Part shown: piece after piece, positions 1-64,000 of the stretch | Layout of the letters: each line of letters begins with the position of its first letter | Position numbering within the stretch: position 1 is the first letter of the stretch | NCBI GenBank assembly: GCA_022451065.1 | Contig: JAKUOU010000018.1 | Coordinates: forward strand, 1,490 to 65,489 | Length of the DNA stretch: 64,000 nt | From: Pedosphaera sp. | GTDB taxonomy: Bacteria; Verrucomicrobiota; Verrucomicrobiia; Limisphaerales; UBA1096 | Reading direction: 5' to 3' | The notes under the pieces: generated by a model | The model's database searches: none | What the model was told of the DNA's origin: nothing | The model's input: the letters and a program-made list of their open reading frames with translations, nothing else | Position numbers and translations under genes: made by a program

Positions 1-1
1 C

Positions 2-268
2 CCTACGCGGCGTGAGGCCAACCTGCAACTCCGCGCCTACCTTTACAAAAACCTGTACTATAATAATATTGTTCACGAGCCCCACATCCGGGCAGCCACG
101 TTGCTTGGTGAACTATTTCACCACTACGAGCAGCACCCTGAGGCGATGGGAGGCGACATGCAGGCATTGATTTCCCAGCATGGGTTGCAGCGTACCATCT
201 GCGATCACCTTGCCTGCATGACAGATCGATTCGTCGTCCTAGAGCACGATCGATTGCTCGGAAAGTAG
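2..268 (+). CDS. dgt: dGTP triphosphohydrolase-like HD-domain protein, C-terminal fragment (5' end outside window)
   Basis: Open frame from the window edge to TAG at 266-268. Translation ...LFHHYEQHPEAMGGDMQALISQHGLQRTICDHLACMTDRFVVLEHDRLLGK ends with the D-x-L-A-x-MTDRF tail typical of Dgt-family dNTPases. Absent from the ORF track because it has no start in the window. Confidence 0.6.
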   Translation, partial: PTRREANLQLRAYLYKNLYYNNIVHEPHIRAATLLGELFHHYEQHPEAMGGDMQALISQHGLQRTICDHLACMTDRFVVLEHDRLLGK

Positions 269-325
269 CGCCTTATGGCGTGAACTGGCGAAAATTTGAA
301 CGATCGCGAATTTCTCGCGTCGAAC

Positions 326-371
326 GGGGCGAAACCCCTTGACAGGCGGGGTAGACTTTTCGCCCCTTTTT
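326..371 (+). terminator. Candidate intrinsic terminator after dgt-like gene
   Basis: GGGGCGAAA (326-334) pairs with TTTCGCCCC (358-366). The 23-nt loop contains an inner CCCC/GGGG stem and is followed by TTTTT (367-371). The loop is large, so confidence is modest. Confidence 0.35.
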
Positions 372-463
372 GGGGAAACAGGGGTTTTTGCAAGGAACCC
401 AAGCCGCACGCTGCCCGATTCGCAGCCCGGGACGGACAATCCTCGCAACATGCAAATAAAGAG

Positions 464-1420
464 ATGATACAAGTTGAGAACCTAACGAAGGCTTTCGGCC
501 CAAAGGTGGCCGTGGACGATGTCTCTTTCTCCGTACAACGCGGAGAGATTCTGGGTTTCCTCGGACCGAACGGCGCCGGCAAATCCACCACCATGCGAAT
601 GATCACCGGATACATCCCCCCGACAGCGGGAGTTGTGAAAGTCGGCGGCAATGACGTGACGGAAAAACCGATCGAGGCCAAGCGCCTGATGGGCTATCTA
701 CCAGAGAGTGCGCCGCTTTACACCGACATGACCGTTGAGGGGTTCCTTGGCTTTTGCGCCGAGGTGCGCGGCATCAGAGATGCGGATAAATCCAAGGCGA
801 TCGATCGTGCGATTGATATGTGCTTCCTCAAGTCGGTCCGGCACCAGAGCGTCGACACCCTCTCGAAGGGATATCGTCATCGCACAGGTTTTGCGCAGGC
901 GATCATTCACGATCCAGACATTCTAGTCATGGACGAACCGACCGACGGGCTTGACCCCAACCAAAAGCAGGAGGTGCGTTCACTTATCCGCCGCATGGGC
1001 CAATCCAAGGCAATCATTTTTTCCACCCACATTCTCGAGGAAGTCGAGGCTGCCTGCACGCGAGCAATAATCATCGACCAAGGCAAAGTTGTCGCCAACG
1101 GTACTCCCAACGAACTCAAGGCCAAGTCCGAGCTGGCAAACTCCTACACTGTGTCCGTTAGCGGCACCGAAGCCGCCTCAGTGCGCGATAAGCTTGGCTC
1201 AGTCATCCAGTCGTCCAAGGTGACGATCGTAAACGACAAACCGCCAACCGTCGTCGCCCGGGTTTTCCCCAAGAGCGCCGACGGTGAAGGAGAGCTTGGC
1301 CGGGCGATCTTTGACATCGCCTCGCAAAACAACTGGAAGGTCAGCGAAATCAAAAAGGAGGAAGGACGCATGGACGACATCTTCCGTAACATCACCCTAC
1401 CTGACACCCAAGCCCAATAA
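464..1420 (+). CDS. ABC transporter ATP-binding protein (GldA-like, ABC-2 type)
   Basis: MIQVENLTKAFGPKVAVDDVSFSVQRGEILGFLGPNGAGKSTT (Walker A), LSKGYRHR signature and ILVMDEPTDGLD Walker B. The start is moved from 296 to the ATG at 464, which gives the canonical ABC N-terminus. Confidence 0.85.
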   Translation: MIQVENLTKAFGPKVAVDDVSFSVQRGEILGFLGPNGAGKSTTMRMITGYIPPTAGVVKVGGNDVTEKPIEAKRLMGYLPESAPLYTDMTVEGFLGFCAEVRGIRDADKSKAIDRAIDMCFLKSVRHQSVDTLSKGYRHRTGFAQAIIHDPDILVMDEPTDGLDPNQKQEVRSLIRRMGQSKAIIFSTHILEEVEAACTRAIIIDQGKVVANGTPNELKAKSELANSYTVSVSGTEAASVRDKLGSVIQSSKVTIVNDKPPTVVARVFPKSADGEGELGRAIFDIASQNNWKVSEIKKEEGRMDDIFRNITLPDTQAQ

Positions 1421-62700: not shown

Positions 62701-62804
62701 ACATGGTCTCCAAGGCCGAACCGGTGCGTACCGCTGTCAAGGTCGGCCGCAACGACCCCTGCCCCTGCGGTAGTGGTAAAAAATACAAGAAGTGCTGTGG
62801 CTAA
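59760..62804 (+). CDS. secA: Preprotein translocase ATPase SecA
   Basis: MLSFLSKLFPNKNERLVKKL, EMATGEGKTLVATLP, DEVDSILIDEARTPLIISG, TNMAGRGTDIKLG and the C-terminal zinc finger CPCGSGKKYKKCCG. Start trimmed to the ATG at 59760. Confidence 0.95.
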   Translation: MLSFLSKLFPNKNERLVKKLTTRLGEINRLEEELQPASPDVLRQKTQQWKEQLSAIHDDKELKQELAAILPEAFAVVKNACRRLYGTDVHVRGHDLKWEMIPYDVQLVGGMALHEGNIAEMATGEGKTLVATLPVYLNALSGRGVHLVTVNDYLAQRDSEWMGAIYKFLGLSVGCIVHDMNPAERREQYNRDITYGTNSEFGFDYLRDNGMASRAEDQVQRGHYFSIVDEVDSILIDEARTPLIISGPAAASLDKEYRKANPKIKSLVQAQHKLVAGYLIEAEKISKQLLSENRPEDANELEMQLGLLLYKSRLGQPKGERLLRLMEEPQNQKLIDKAELSLHADQSKKDLYDQKEELYFGMEEKNHDADLTEKGRSYLNPNDTEAFMLPDLSVEQHDIDNDTRLDAQGRLAAKTKLQDEFKIKAENIHITGQLLKAYSLYVRDIAYVVQENKVIIVDEHTGRAMPGRRWSDGLHQAVEAKEGVTIEKETQTLATITIQNYFRLYTKLAGMTGTAATEAQEFFDIYKLGVLSIPTHEPCIRDDANDSVYKTRREKYNAALDEIKDIHRQGRPILVGTISVEVSELISRMLKKNGVIHSVLNAKYHEQEAEIITRAGQKGAVTIATNMAGRGTDIKLGQGVETIGGLHVMGTERHESRRIDRQLRGRCARQGDAGSTRFFLSLEDDLLRLFANNNRLFKFVEKGIGEGEAIGNSGLLDRSIQTAQKNVEKHHFQIRKRTLEYDDVMNKQREEIYGFRNDVMHTDQVQDKLIGIMDEVIANKVQEFCDPELDPVNWDFQALSDWANLTFPVGVSADLLAGLVEGKAAAGTDNERDMTPHQRLLFDDISAKAKEAYQLKISFEDSDALVAVERYTILNSIDRLWQEHLYEMDSLRYSIGLRAYGQRDPILEYKAEGYHMFQELQVNIWTEICQNIFRSASSVDAFQSFLRNLPVQEVHQSSSAFGAEERRAANEASDMVDEASDMVSKAEPVRTAVKVGRNDPCPCGSGKKYKKCCG
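62670..62711. repeat. 21-bp tandem duplication inside the secA C-terminal linker
   Basis: GAGGCCTCCGACATGGTGGAC followed by GAAGCCTCCGACATGGTCTCC (17/21 identical). It encodes EASDMVD-EASDMVS. Confidence 0.85.
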
Positions 62805-62932
62805 GGTAAGCCAAGCGCTTAACCAGGCAGTGGCCAGCTAGCGGGCTTTTCAATTGTCCGTCCAAAAAAACCCATCCAGTGGCCCATATCTTTCATTTGA
62901 TGCGGCGGGGTTTTCGCCTAGACTGACCCACC

Positions 62933-63787
62933 TTGCGCGGCTTCAACAAGCCGCACCTTGATTTGGATCCTGCACGCCAGTGGTTTTTGTTCGCCGTCAT
63001 TGTGTACGGCGCGAGCATGCTTTACTCCACTTTCCTGTGGCGGCGCGGCTTTCAGCGAGACAACTGGATCAACTTCGGACTGCTCGCTGCCGCCTTCGTG
63101 CTCCACACCCTCGCCATGGCCAAGCGCGGCTTCACGCTGAATCACTGCCCGGTGAACAACCTGTACGAGGCCACCACATTTGTCCTGTGGACGATCGCCG
63201 CCGGCAGCCTTGCGCTTGCCCTCCTGCCCAAGCTTCGTTTCCTCGGTGTGTTCACGGCTCCATTACTGTTTTGTGTTGGCCTTTTTGCCTTATGGCCCGG
63301 CCTTGACGTAGAGTACATTGATAATAAACCCAATTTTTCCAGTGACTGGTTCAAACTTCACGTTCCTGTCATTTTACTTGGATATGGTGCATTTGGTTTA
63401 AGCGCCACCGCCGGGAGTATGTTTTTGACGCAGGAAAGAAATTTAAAATTCCACCGGGCAAAAGCACTGTTCGCCAACCTTCCGCCCATCCAGCGTCTGG
63501 AAAAAATAATCACTTACACACTTGTAATCGGCCTGGCGCTGCTCACTGCTGGTGTTGGTATTGGCGCAGCGTTTGTGGAGGAGGACGCGGTGTTTTGGAA
63601 TGATTCAAAAACCATTTGGTCATTTCTGGTATGGACGATGTACTGCGGATTGCTGGTTTCGCACCTAAAGTTCGACCAACGCGGCCGCCGCTATGCTTGG
63701 TCGGCCATCGTTGCGTTCGGCTTTGTGATCCTCACGTTCTGGGGGACAAACCTGCTCTCAGGCATTCACAATCCCCCCACCCCGTAG
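62933..63787 (+). CDS. Cytochrome c assembly family protein (CcsA/HemX/YpjD-like)
   Basis: 8-TM-like profile, a Trp-rich segment FWNDSKTIWSFLVWTMY and a C-terminal TFWGTNLLSGIHN. It lies directly upstream of hemA, as HemX does in Bacillus. The start (TTG at 62933) is uncertain. Confidence 0.55.
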   Translation: MRGFNKPHLDLDPARQWFLFAVIVYGASMLYSTFLWRRGFQRDNWINFGLLAAAFVLHTLAMAKRGFTLNHCPVNNLYEATTFVLWTIAAGSLALALLPKLRFLGVFTAPLLFCVGLFALWPGLDVEYIDNKPNFSSDWFKLHVPVILLGYGAFGLSATAGSMFLTQERNLKFHRAKALFANLPPIQRLEKIITYTLVIGLALLTAGVGIGAAFVEEDAVFWNDSKTIWSFLVWTMYCGLLVSHLKFDQRGRRYAWSAIVAFGFVILTFWGTNLLSGIHNPPTP

Positions 63788-63790
63788 GCC

Positions 63791-64000
63791 ATGCCGATTG
63801 TCGTCACAGGTTTGAGTCATCACTCCTCACCAGTCGAGATGCGGGAGCGATTTGCCTTTTCCAATACGCAGGTCGCCGACGCGCTTGGCCAAGTGCGCCA
63901 GCGCGGCATCGCCGAGGAGGCCGTGATTCTCTCCACCTGTAACCGTGTGGAGATTTACGCCGCTACACGGGAGAGCAATCCTGTGCTTGGCCAAGCGCTG
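63791..64000 (+). CDS. hemA: Glutamyl-tRNA reductase, N-terminal fragment (continues beyond window)
   Basis: MPIVVTGLSHHSSPVEMRERFAF...AVILSTCNRVEIYA contains the catalytic-Cys motif STCNRxE of HemA. Confidence 0.85.
   Translation, partial: MPIVVTGLSHHSSPVEMRERFAFSNTQVADALGQVRQRGIAEEAVILSTCNRVEIYAATRESNPVLGQAL

Follow-up and report, generated by a model that had tools for sequence, protein, structure and literature searches.

Highly iterated palindromes have been described from cyanobacteria, where the function of HIP1 (GCGATCGC) has been sought for about 30 years; all studied cases come from one phylum. HIP1 abundance tracks methyltransferases that act on the nested targets CGATCG and GATC, its single-base deviants are biased to the outer positions, and a methyl- or nick-directed mismatch-repair ratchet was proposed for it by Elhai (PMC4390886). 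A chromosome-organisation reading was favoured by Xu et al. on the basis of a periodicity argument (PMC5861425). Methylated HIP1 increases transformation and recombination (10.1101/2024.09.10.611283), and HIP1 was recently put forward as an uptake signal (10.64898/2026.06.24.733823). Alternate highly iterated palindromes are CAGGCCTG in Synechococcus PCC 6312 and GGGATCCC in Synechococcus JA-3-3Ab/JA-2-3B'a (PMC5861425, PMC4390886). Here, an iterated palindrome with core CTTGGCCAAG is described from a 64,000-nt stretch of contig JAKUOU010000018.1 of Pedosphaera sp. (Verrucomicrobiota), referred to below as the window.

The element, (s)CGCTTGGCCAAGCG(s), is almost certainly a lineage-specific palindrome of the HIP type, which acts at the level of DNA and is built by point substitution. 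It stands outside the cyanobacteria, with which the HIP literature consulted is exclusively concerned. The analysis drew on the window (G+C 58.2%), 151 kb from orthologous regions and 825 kb of metagenome sequence selected by the motif, all from uncultured organisms. The first-pass annotation of the window, made by eye, knew of no described equivalent. Open-literature searches for the octamer TTGGCCAA and the decamer CTTGGCCAAG as genomic repeats agreed with this, returning only primers and unrelated uses.

Abundance and placement of the palindrome in the window

The octamer TTGGCCAA is present in 34 exact copies. A pattern search and an independent script returned the same 34 coordinates, and these are exactly the starts listed by the first-pass annotation, none missed and none spurious. 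About one copy had been expected by chance; the order-0 expectation is 0.9, and dinucleotide-preserving shuffles gave a mean of 1.51 and a maximum of 6. The observed/expected ratio (O/E) of the octamer was 39, 21, 8.7, 6.8, 2.5 and 1.4 under Markov models of orders 0 to 5, the last three being the orders for which a check had been suggested. For the decamer, it was 283 (order 0), 209 (order 1), 39 (order 3) and 3.1 (order 5). This gradual fall with rising order indicates that the excess is distributed across nested sub-words rather than tied to a single length. The synonymous neighbour CTGGCCAA, put at about ten copies by eye, has 9.

The window holds 137 GGCC-centred sites with at least one CTT/AAG flank, at a mean spacing of 466 bp. 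Among them, 34 include the octamer and 21 are the full decamer. Their spacing is Poisson-like (coefficient of variation, CV, 0.98), which rules out a regular or periodic arrangement within the window, 64 kb being too short for periods of 10-90 kb.

Fifty genes were called by codon statistics, and the main ones were confirmed by Pfam (among them dnaE, secA, argH, ftsZ, mraZ, tgt, queA, aroB-like and rpsR). The octamer falls 15 times in phase 0, 12 times in phase 1 and three times in phase 2 of unrelated genes (30/34 copies), and four times in spacers. The first-pass annotation had reported copies in all three codon phases, on both strands and in both coding and intergenic DNA, which is borne out, as are all the phases that it quoted; it was mistaken in taking the copies at 63885 and 63987 as intergenic, both being within the N-terminus of hemA. 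Coding copies of the octamer numbered 28, against 5.6 under within-gene synonymous-codon shuffling (z = 9.5) and 2.4 under codon permutation. For the decamer, 16 coding copies were found, against 1.4 and 0.3, respectively. The codon-aware O/E is thus not near 1 but 5-12, a value for the window and not for the genome. By phase, the octamer is enriched 3.8x, 6.2x and 35x. Its half-site, CTTGGCC/GGCCAAG, is enriched in all six orientation-by-phase classes (1.6-8.8x), and no restriction to one frame or dipeptide is seen.

The same preference is visible in codon choice. The lysine codon AAG is used in 89% of cases after GCC and 59% otherwise, the alanine codon GCC in 79% of cases before AAG and 43% before codons without initial AA, and the minor leucine codon CTT in 42% of cases before GGC and 11% before codons without initial G. 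In noncoding DNA, 27-36% of GGCC half-sites bear the CTT flank, and spacers are the densest compartment. The half-site orientations are split 88:70 (56:44), in the direction of the coding-strand preference, and the GC skew of the window is uniformly negative.

As the excess outlasts codon-aware shuffles and is found in all phases, on both strands and most densely in spacers, the signal is a property of DNA, independent of peptide, codon pair, RNA or mobile element. The claim of the first-pass annotation that the constraint acts on DNA and not on a peptide is therefore upheld. An explanation by codon pairs or peptides was ruled out by the within-gene synonymous and permutation shuffles and by the enrichment in each phase. 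A repeat of the repetitive extragenic palindrome (REP) or miniature inverted-repeat transposable element (MITE) type was also ruled out: no unit extends beyond about 14 bp, 30/34 copies lie in genes, and relatives differ almost only by substitutions.

The individual copies are listed below. Coordinates are those of the octamer unless a composite is indicated, and strands are those of the genes.

4030..4037, octamer only, with G/C flanks; ABC_transp_aux gene 2188-4119(+), phase 0
5187..5194, full decamer; DUF4340/FKBP gene 4125-6026(+), phase 0, Leu-Ala-Lys
5277..5284, full decamer; DUF4340/FKBP gene 4125-6026(+), phase 0
6031..6038, full decamer in the 16-nt palindrome CCGCTTGGCCAAGCGG; intergenic, directly after the stop codon of gene 4125-6026
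8986..8993, octamer with left half only (CTTGGCC); FtsX-type permease gene 6846-10184(+), phase 1
10975..10982, octamer with right half only (GGCCAAG); gene 10896-12275(+), phase 1
11143..11150, full decamer; gene 10896-12275(+), phase 1, Leu-Gly-Gln
11552..11559, octamer with right half only; gene 10896-12275(+), phase 2, Trp-Pro-Ser
13132..13139, octamer with one half only; tgt 12288-13433(-), phase 0
15265..15272, full decamer; BPL/LplA/LipB-family gene 15120-16076(+), phase 1
17063..17070, octamer with right half only; 3-dehydroquinate synthase gene 16082-17203(+), phase 0
18572..18590, composite GGCCAAG-CG-CTTGGCCAAG holding the copy at 18582, three half-sites in 19 nt with 12-bp centre spacing; intergenic, between the ZIP transporter gene and rpsR
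21074..21081, full decamer; ftsZ 20098-21441(-), phase 0
22565..22572, full decamer within CTTGGCTTGGCCAAGGCCAA; cell-division-cluster gene 21458-22708(-), phase 1
24110..24117, full decamer; cell-division-cluster gene 23655-24575(-), phase 2
26026..26033, full decamer; gene 25512-26672(-), phase 0
26418..26425, octamer with one half only; gene 25512-26672(-), phase 1
26650..26657, octamer with one half only; gene 25512-26672(-), phase 0
28043..28050, octamer with one half only; gene 27827-28594(-), phase 1
32479..32486, full decamer; gene 31318-32709(-), phase 1
34261..34268, octamer with one half only; gene 32706-34508(-), phase 0
38874..38881, full decamer; RibD_C gene 38514-39215(+), phase 0
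39123..39130, full decamer; RibD_C gene 38514-39215(+), phase 0
41711..41718, full decamer; PSCyt/PSD1 gene 40651-43614(-), phase 0
43161..43168, full decamer; PSCyt/PSD1 gene 40651-43614(-), phase 2
45469..45486, composite GCCAAGCG-CTTGGCCAAG holding the copy at 45478; divergent spacer between the lactate permease gene and the NADH-dehydrogenase chain 3 gene
45986..45993, octamer with left half only; intergenic, 15 nt past the stop codon of gene 45534-45971
48052..48059, full decamer; Na/Ala symporter gene 47451-48854(+), phase 1
55660..55667, full decamer; heparinase II/III-like gene 54501-56429(-), phase 0; one- or two-base variants in most relatives
55810..55817, full decamer; heparinase II/III-like gene 54501-56429(-), phase 0; the best-conserved copy, in all crown-clade relatives with data
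58298..58305, octamer with one half only; argH 58222-59727(-), phase 0
60700..60707, octamer with one half only; secA 59610-62804(+), phase 1; kept in all in-clade relatives with data, including L009
63885..63892, full decamer; hemA N-terminus (start 63791), phase 1
63987..63994, full decamer; hemA N-terminus (start 63791), phase 1

The hemA N-terminus (GlutR_N domain) begins at 63791 and continues beyond the window end at 64000. Just downstream of the copy at 6031, a hairpin formed by ACCACCCAGG and CCTGGGTGGT and followed by a T-run (6046-6085) looks, by inspection, like the intrinsic terminator of gene 4125-6026; the motif lies outside it. A terminator or RNA-hairpin role of the spacer copies was ruled out by inspection; only this one of the four adjoins a T-run hairpin.

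Some genes and words of the window deserve mention beside the motif. The product of the gene at 19085-19849 (-) joins a histone-H1-like N-terminal region (weak Pfam HC2 match that fails the curated cut-off) to a DksA/TraR zinc finger. No other gene of the window is as dense in half-sites (7.8 per kb), probably because Ala-Lys repeats are spelled GCC-AAG. Two adjacent genes at 56440-58146 (-) encode a prepilin-type N-terminal methylation motif, one of them together with DUF1559; their G+C content is 51-52% and their motif density is low. They are members of a family that has undergone massive expansion in the PVC group (Planctomycetes-Verrucomicrobia-Chlamydiae). Under synonymous shuffling, other words of the window are depleted, including GAAGAA/AAGAAG/CTTC (O/E 0.36-0.65), GGCGCC (0.38), GGACC (0.45), CCTGGA (0.31), and GAGCTCC and CAGCTGG (about 0.2), several of which contain classic restriction sites (NarI, AvaII, SacI, PvuII). 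Other enriched words are CACCGGCA (3.2x), CTCGAGCA (3.9x) and A-runs.

Site anatomy

Among all words of 4-8 bases, the heptamer CTTGGCC/GGCCAAG has the highest z-score in the window (158 copies against 60 expected from 100 within-gene synonymous-codon shuffles, z = 12.6). It occurs about once per 405 bp. The heptamer, CTTGGCCA (48 copies) and GCTTGGCC (42 copies) are the most over-represented words, and TGGCCAAG and GGCCAAGC have 37 and 36 copies in the k-mer ranking. The CTT flank is found on 12.7% of the 1240 half-sites around 620 GGCC, the runner-up flank on 3.3%. The octamer, which the first-pass annotation took as the unit, is therefore truly an over-represented palindrome, but it is an arbitrary cut from a longer signal whose half-site is stronger. 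The better unit is a palindrome of 10-12 bp formed from this strongly enriched half-site.

The flanks prolong the palindrome. In 156 copies pooled from the window and its relatives, C is found at -1 in 81%, G at -2 in 60% and C at -3 in 49%, which agrees with the bias toward GCG and CG noted by eye and gives the consensus sCGCTTGGCCAAGCGs. Only 10-14 bp are conserved around the copies, and the information content vanishes past about 14 bp. The symmetric arrangement is itself preferred: 21 full decamers were observed, where pooled independent halves predict 10.1, and 9.0 after stratification by codon phase and coding status (2.3-fold, p = 4e-4). A chance meeting of independent halves was thus ruled out. 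The same excess, 1.5-4-fold, is found in each of the 12 clade sequences presented below.

A further level of order was found in the metagenome loci (L201-L320), where the 22-nt perfect palindrome CTTGGCCAAGCGCTTGGCCAAG, made of two decamers sharing a CG spacer with a 12-bp period, occurs at 35 sites with nearly all different flanks (for example, L262:5737 and L262:10162). Its frequency is roughly 7-8x the expectation, as a rough estimate from the flank preferences, and it preserves the reading frame (LAKRLAK, LGQALGQ or WPSAWPS). Partial forms are present in the window at 18572-18590 and 45469-45486. In the unbiased set of the window and the DnaE loci, 12 bp is the most frequent short centre-to-centre distance, with orthologous copies included and counts consequently non-independent. 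The anatomy has therefore three layers: the half-site CTTGGCC is strongly enriched, its symmetric pairing is preferred in addition, and a 12-bp register is favoured. In a metagenome contig of 40% G+C without the clade signature, three copies of CCTTGGCCAAGG follow each other at a regular 23-nt period (L204:7963-8020). This array looks like an iteron or short repeat array rather than the dispersed motif.

Clade distribution and turnover of the sites

Relatives were collected as 80 loci from a protein-guided scan with the window DnaE, one genome per species. All of the nearest loci belong to marine Verrucomicrobiota metagenome-assembled genomes (MAGs) labelled Verrucomicrobiales, Limisphaerales or Pedosphaeraceae, whose isolate names indicate samples of the Arabian Sea, eastern tropical North Pacific (ETNP) and Fram Strait type. 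The ERR599 run numbers among these names are presumably those of Tara Oceans. The octamer is the top palindromic 8-mer in 12/12 clade sequences, that is, the window and the relatives with DnaE at least 87% identical (L001-L009, L012 and L080). CTTGGCC is the top 7-mer in each of these relatives except L012, where the overlapping GCCAAGC narrowly leads. Per 10 kb, these relatives have 4-14.5 octamers and 13-49 half-sites. The motif does not rise above background in the sister clade (DnaE 78%; G+C 40-42%; L010, L011, L069 and L074) or in any of the 65 remoter Verrucomicrobiota loci. MAGs that bear the motif are JASMKO01, CALJHX01, NYYJ01, CAUZVJ01, JASLKI01, PBKH01, CAJWEP01 and CAJWPV01; sister MAGs free of it are JAYZHR01, PAOJ01, SHAK01 (MED-G186) and JASLKL01. 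It is therefore confined to one Limisphaerales/Pedosphaeraceae-like clade of marine Verrucomicrobiota.

The presence or absence of the motif coincides with a large shift in base composition, the motif-bearing crown clade having a G+C content of 58-63% and the sister clade 40-42% with conserved gene order. L009 is intermediate in both G+C (52%) and motif density. Three loci with DnaE 63-66% identical to that of the window (L023, L026 and L053) come from MAGs titled Bifidobacterium sp., Candidatus Methylomirabilota and Candidatus Acidoferrum, and are likely binning contaminants or mislabelled bins.

The pattern of two decamers CTTGGCCAAG separated by 0-30 nt was used to scan metagenomes, in which a few tens of chance matches are expected (a rough figure for an assumed collection size). 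At least 120 loci (825 kb, median G+C 0.59) were obtained. A word of the CTTGGCC family is the top 7-mer in 106 of the 120 loci listed, and the median half-site count of the loci is 32 per 10 kb, about 26 once the selected pair is discounted. Viral contigs also carry the word. Among them, L149 is a 13.7-kb contig (IMGVR_UViG_3300032087_002358) with genes for a terminase large subunit, a DnaB-like helicase and an exonuclease. It bears 8 copies of TTGGCCAA where 0.29 are expected, and 23 half-sites, a host-like density. Moderate enrichment was found in the viral contigs L329, L330 and L333. Besides that of L149, the viral records concerned are IMGVR_UViG 3300047409_000439, 3300025872_000651 and 3300006030_000378. 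All four are probably phages or prophages of the Verrucomicrobial clade, and the host-like density suggests that the factor favouring the word extends its action to some viruses of these hosts or is exploited by them. A scan of viral contigs with a single 14-mer was abandoned, giving mostly chance single matches; the two-copy pattern is far more specific.

Synteny with the relatives covers the right 24 kb of the window, where nucleotide identity ranges from 93% to 76%; about 20 kb in 12 taxa served for the evolutionary comparisons. The first-pass annotation had suggested looking for the motif at orthologous positions in related Verrucomicrobiota: the word is present clade-wide, but its sites turn over rapidly, only 1/35 alignable octamer sites being found in every taxon and 5/35 being singletons. 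Differences at motif sites are almost always substitutions, not indels. Single-base variants number 24 at the outer position and 5, 13 and 15 at the inner positions, and 20 of these 24 are T to C, yielding CTGGCCAA or TTGGCCAG. Gain is exemplified by the change of CTGGCCAA to TTGGCCAA in L005 alone at 54967, and loss by the window itself at 50604. Sites thus arise and decay through point substitution with high turnover.

Within half-sites, third codon positions are 83-96% identical to crown-clade relatives, against 63-75% outside (p down to 6e-8). In the closest pair, the window and L080, the values are 0.92 and 0.86 (p = 0.31), and in L009 they are 62% and 50%. First and second codon positions show no such difference, and the excess persists in 9/9 comparisons with a codon-matched control. 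Pairwise, the silent-site substitution rate in motifs is 0.2-0.7 of the rate outside. This measure is open to survivor bias: when the word exceeds its neutral equilibrium, requiring it in one genome of a pair leaves one branch out of account, and the rate then appears only half as high. The first conservation tests, which conditioned on presence and so overstated selection, were replaced by a design immune to this bias, in which motif positions were defined in other taxa and a pair outside the definition was then compared. With this design, 103 silent mismatches were found where the same codons elsewhere predict 127.3 (ratio 0.81, z = -2.47). Parsimony counts polarised on three sister pairs, with 58 losses against 58.2 expected and 8 gains against 5.6, at first suggested neutral decay. 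They were set aside, the same pipeline assigning 15% net loss (sd 7%) to all abundant 7-mers. A test demanding unanimity in the other taxa was also discarded, its 39 qualifying sites being too few (4 lost, 13.5 expected).

Candidate mechanisms and comparison with known systems

The three-layer anatomy is what would be expected from a two-fold-symmetric protein with partial affinity for the single half-site. A clade-specific dimeric reader of this kind could bias which substitutions persist, copies emerging base by base through ordinary point substitution wherever the local sequence permits. By analogy with HIP1, we infer that the reader may be a pathway that is linked to a DNA methyltransferase, targets the nested TGGCCA/YGGCCR/GGCC core and would label resident DNA as self in repair, recombination or uptake. 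We give a functional self-mark read by a symmetric protein a probability of about 45%, its methyltransferase-linked version being the likeliest. In its favour are the hyperabundance at the DNA level, the excess of symmetric pairs with their palindromic flanks and 12-bp register, the clade restriction together with the carriage on phage-like contigs, which points to a factor acting in trans, and the lowered silent divergence within motifs. More tentatively, the word might belong to a self-DNA system proper, either a methylation-dependent uptake or recombination signal or a methyl-directed repair ratchet, with HIP-type watermarks being convergent and general. The readings proposed here overlap and are not mutually exclusive.

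Several observations weigh against a self-mark. The restriction-modification core pointed out by the first-pass annotation is indeed nested in the motif; however, the GGCC tetramer is not enriched (O/E 1.0), and the motif accounts for most of the TGGCCA excess, 76/106 copies having the outer T or A. An account by plain GGCC methylation is therefore insufficient. Single half-sites make up 116/137 sites, and the symmetric excess of 2.3-fold is far below the dominance of the whole octamer in HIP1. Survivor bias could account for half of the pairwise conservation (ratio about 0.5) if the motif is out of equilibrium, and among words shared by a sister and two or more outgroups, retention is 0.727 for the motif and 0.748 for generic 7-mers. 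The case for present-day maintenance is thus modest, below the strong purifying selection implied by the naive test. No methyltransferase, Vsr or competence gene is present among the window genes. Likewise, a regular-expression screen for methyltransferase motifs in about 1 Mb of clade DNA and in signature-bearing viral contigs found none, a weak negative, as this coarse screen reached no more than part of a genome. Its matches to m5C (PCQ+ENV) and N6/N4 (xPPY+FxGxG) motifs were false positives in an Omp85 protein and an unannotated open reading frame.

A possible, if rather unlikely, explanation is that the word is the functionless by-product or relic of a context-specific mutation or repair bias, in which near-matches are converted to matches and nothing reads the word. 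The bias could be a methyl- or nick-directed mismatch-repair ratchet, a short-patch system resembling very short patch (VSP) repair, or template switching at quasi-palindromes that perfects inverted repeats, and it possibly peaked in the stem lineage, the copies being in decay today. It would agree with the density peak where constraint is weakest (spacers and silent sites), with the high turnover, with ancestral copies being retained no better than generic conserved words, and with a codon-matched silent-rate ratio of about 0.5, the pure survivor-bias prediction for a decaying relic. Phage-like contigs, presumably replicating in the hosts, have the density expected of a trans-acting bias on any resident DNA, and template switching would account for the palindromic flank extension and the 22-mers, although not for why this very sequence is favoured. 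However, directional conversion predicts depleted neighbours, and no single-base neighbour of the octamer is clearly depleted. None of its transition neighbours falls below expectation, and those in the GGCC core are mildly enriched (TTGaCCAA 2.7x, TTaGCCAA 2.1x), which fits products of the decay of an abundant word. The mismatch-repair and VSP versions, which the first-pass annotation had among its possible links, therefore gain no support from neighbour-word frequencies. A VSP or deamination signature was also rejected on the absence of a clear single-cytosine C-to-T hotspot (by eye, among the listed changes), and GGCC, at its expected frequency, as well as TTGACCAA and TTAGCCAA, which are enriched, not depleted, speak against restriction avoidance or a VSP-repair word bias. 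Moreover, the silent-change deficit persists in the survivor-free test, lineage-specific gains occur, and the parsimony excess of losses is a pipeline artefact common to abundant 7-mers. Mere artefact of codon usage, amino-acid composition, a repeated peptide, a mobile element or assembly has hardly any probability left. GCC, AAG and GGC are common codons in the window, and its densest gene is the Ala/Lys-rich HC2/DksA-like one; nevertheless, the codon shuffles, the phase classes in both orientations, the spacer density, the 10-14 bp of conservation around copies that mostly lie in unrelated genes (30/34), the near-absence of indels between genomes and the recurrence in independent MAGs and metagenomes from many separate assemblies refute it.

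An uptake sequence, or one enhancing transformation or recombination, of the type of the DNA uptake sequence (DUS) or uptake signal sequence (USS) is unlikely, but it has more in its favour than artefact. Its unit would be the asymmetric 7-9-mer (CG)CTTGGCC, whose self-complementary ends (CG, GGCC) let inverted copies overlap, palindromes and 12-bp arrays being the cheapest packing. The top over-represented word is indeed the asymmetric heptamer, its orientations are nearly equal, and about one site per 0.4-0.8 kb in all frames and spacers is as for DUS and USS. One-off variants are mildly enriched, as in gradual molecular drive (PMC1939737). The amino-acid sequence seems to have been shaped, the O/E being 11.5 under codon permutation and 5.0 under synonymous shuffling, which resembles the reported co-evolution of proteomes with uptake sequences (PMC2817400). 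HIP1 itself is now proposed as an uptake or recombination signal. On the other hand, full palindromes are 2.3-fold above independent halves even when conditioned on the shared GGCC and on codon phase, and the spacer copy at 6031 lies outside the clear terminator-like hairpin beside it. Copies on phage-like contigs are not predicted unless these are prophages. The window has no competence genes, the prepilin-type genes at 56440-58146 not being evidence of competence, and we know of no report of natural transformation in Verrucomicrobiota, which also counts against this explanation. A binding site for a nucleoid-associated or chromosome-organising protein is less probable still. The symmetric site, half-sites and 12-bp register would suit cooperative binding of a dimer, the distribution is apparently genome-wide, and a periodicity argument exists for HIP1 (PMC5861425). 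Against it stand the Poisson-like spacing in the window (CV 0.98, over a length too short for 10-90 kb periodicity), the high turnover and weak conservation of sites, which oppose a position-specific function, and the host-like density on phage-like contigs, which would be unexpected.

A HIP-like palindrome, unrelated in sequence, in another phylum provides a second independent case for studying genome watermarks. The motif-free sister clade, 22% away at the DnaE protein, makes a natural comparative experiment for the presence or absence of responsible genes, among which methyltransferase, repair, uptake and DNA-binding genes are candidates. The legible anatomy of half-site, dimer site and 12-bp array constrains the type of reader protein. 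The word is also a strong k-mer marker for binning marine Verrucomicrobiota and for tying phage contigs to hosts. If it is a self-DNA mark, HIP-type watermarks would be a convergent, general bacterial strategy and not a cyanobacterial oddity. A methylation-dependent uptake or recombination signal would imply natural transformation in Verrucomicrobiota, and a methyl-directed repair ratchet would be of the kind proposed, never demonstrated, for HIP1.

Among known systems, Chi and the FtsK-orienting or architecture-imparting sequences (KOPS/AIMS) are likewise over-represented short words acting at the DNA level. They are, however, asymmetric, strongly co-oriented with replication and far sparser, and a Chi-like role was ruled out by the 56:44 orientation split in a window of uniformly negative GC skew. 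The DUS of Neisseria and the USS of Pasteurellaceae resemble the motif in a density of about one per kb or more, in both orientations, in their presence inside genes in several frames with codon and amino-acid effects, in mild one-off enrichment and in a dialect-like lineage restriction. Unlike the motif, they are asymmetric and not favoured as overlapping palindromes, and their spacer copies often form terminator hairpins, whereas the copy at 6031 lies outside the adjoining one. Competence machinery and biased uptake have been demonstrated for DUS and USS and are hypothetical for the present motif.

The parallel with HIP1 drawn by the first-pass annotation holds in hyperabundance, DNA-level action, clade restriction, outer-position deviants and palindromic flank extension. 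Both words are GC-rich short palindromes found in coding DNA in all frames and in spacers, HIP1 at 15-300x and the present word at 21-39x for the octamer and >200x for the decamer under low-order models, and both nest 6- and 4-bp palindromes that are methyltransferase targets (CGATCG/GATC in HIP1, TGGCCA/GGCC here). They differ in that the half-site alone is strongest here, most sites being half-sites, and in the existence of the 12-bp double palindrome. Cognate methyltransferases are identified for HIP1, while here one is a candidate only by analogy, and selective conservation of the sites is far less well supported here after correction for survivor bias. HIP1 spans most of a phylum, the present word about a genus or family. 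With the alternate cyanobacterial palindromes, it shares the character of a lineage-specific replacement palindrome, and CAGGCCTG is likewise centred on GGCC, which shows that GGCC-centred iterated palindromes exist. Those words have other flanks and arose in a cyanobacterial background with a prior HIP system, and no half-site or array structure is reported for them. As CTTGGCCAAG is neither GCGATCGC nor a one-step derivative of it, and belongs to another phylum, it is at most an analogous alternate HIP.

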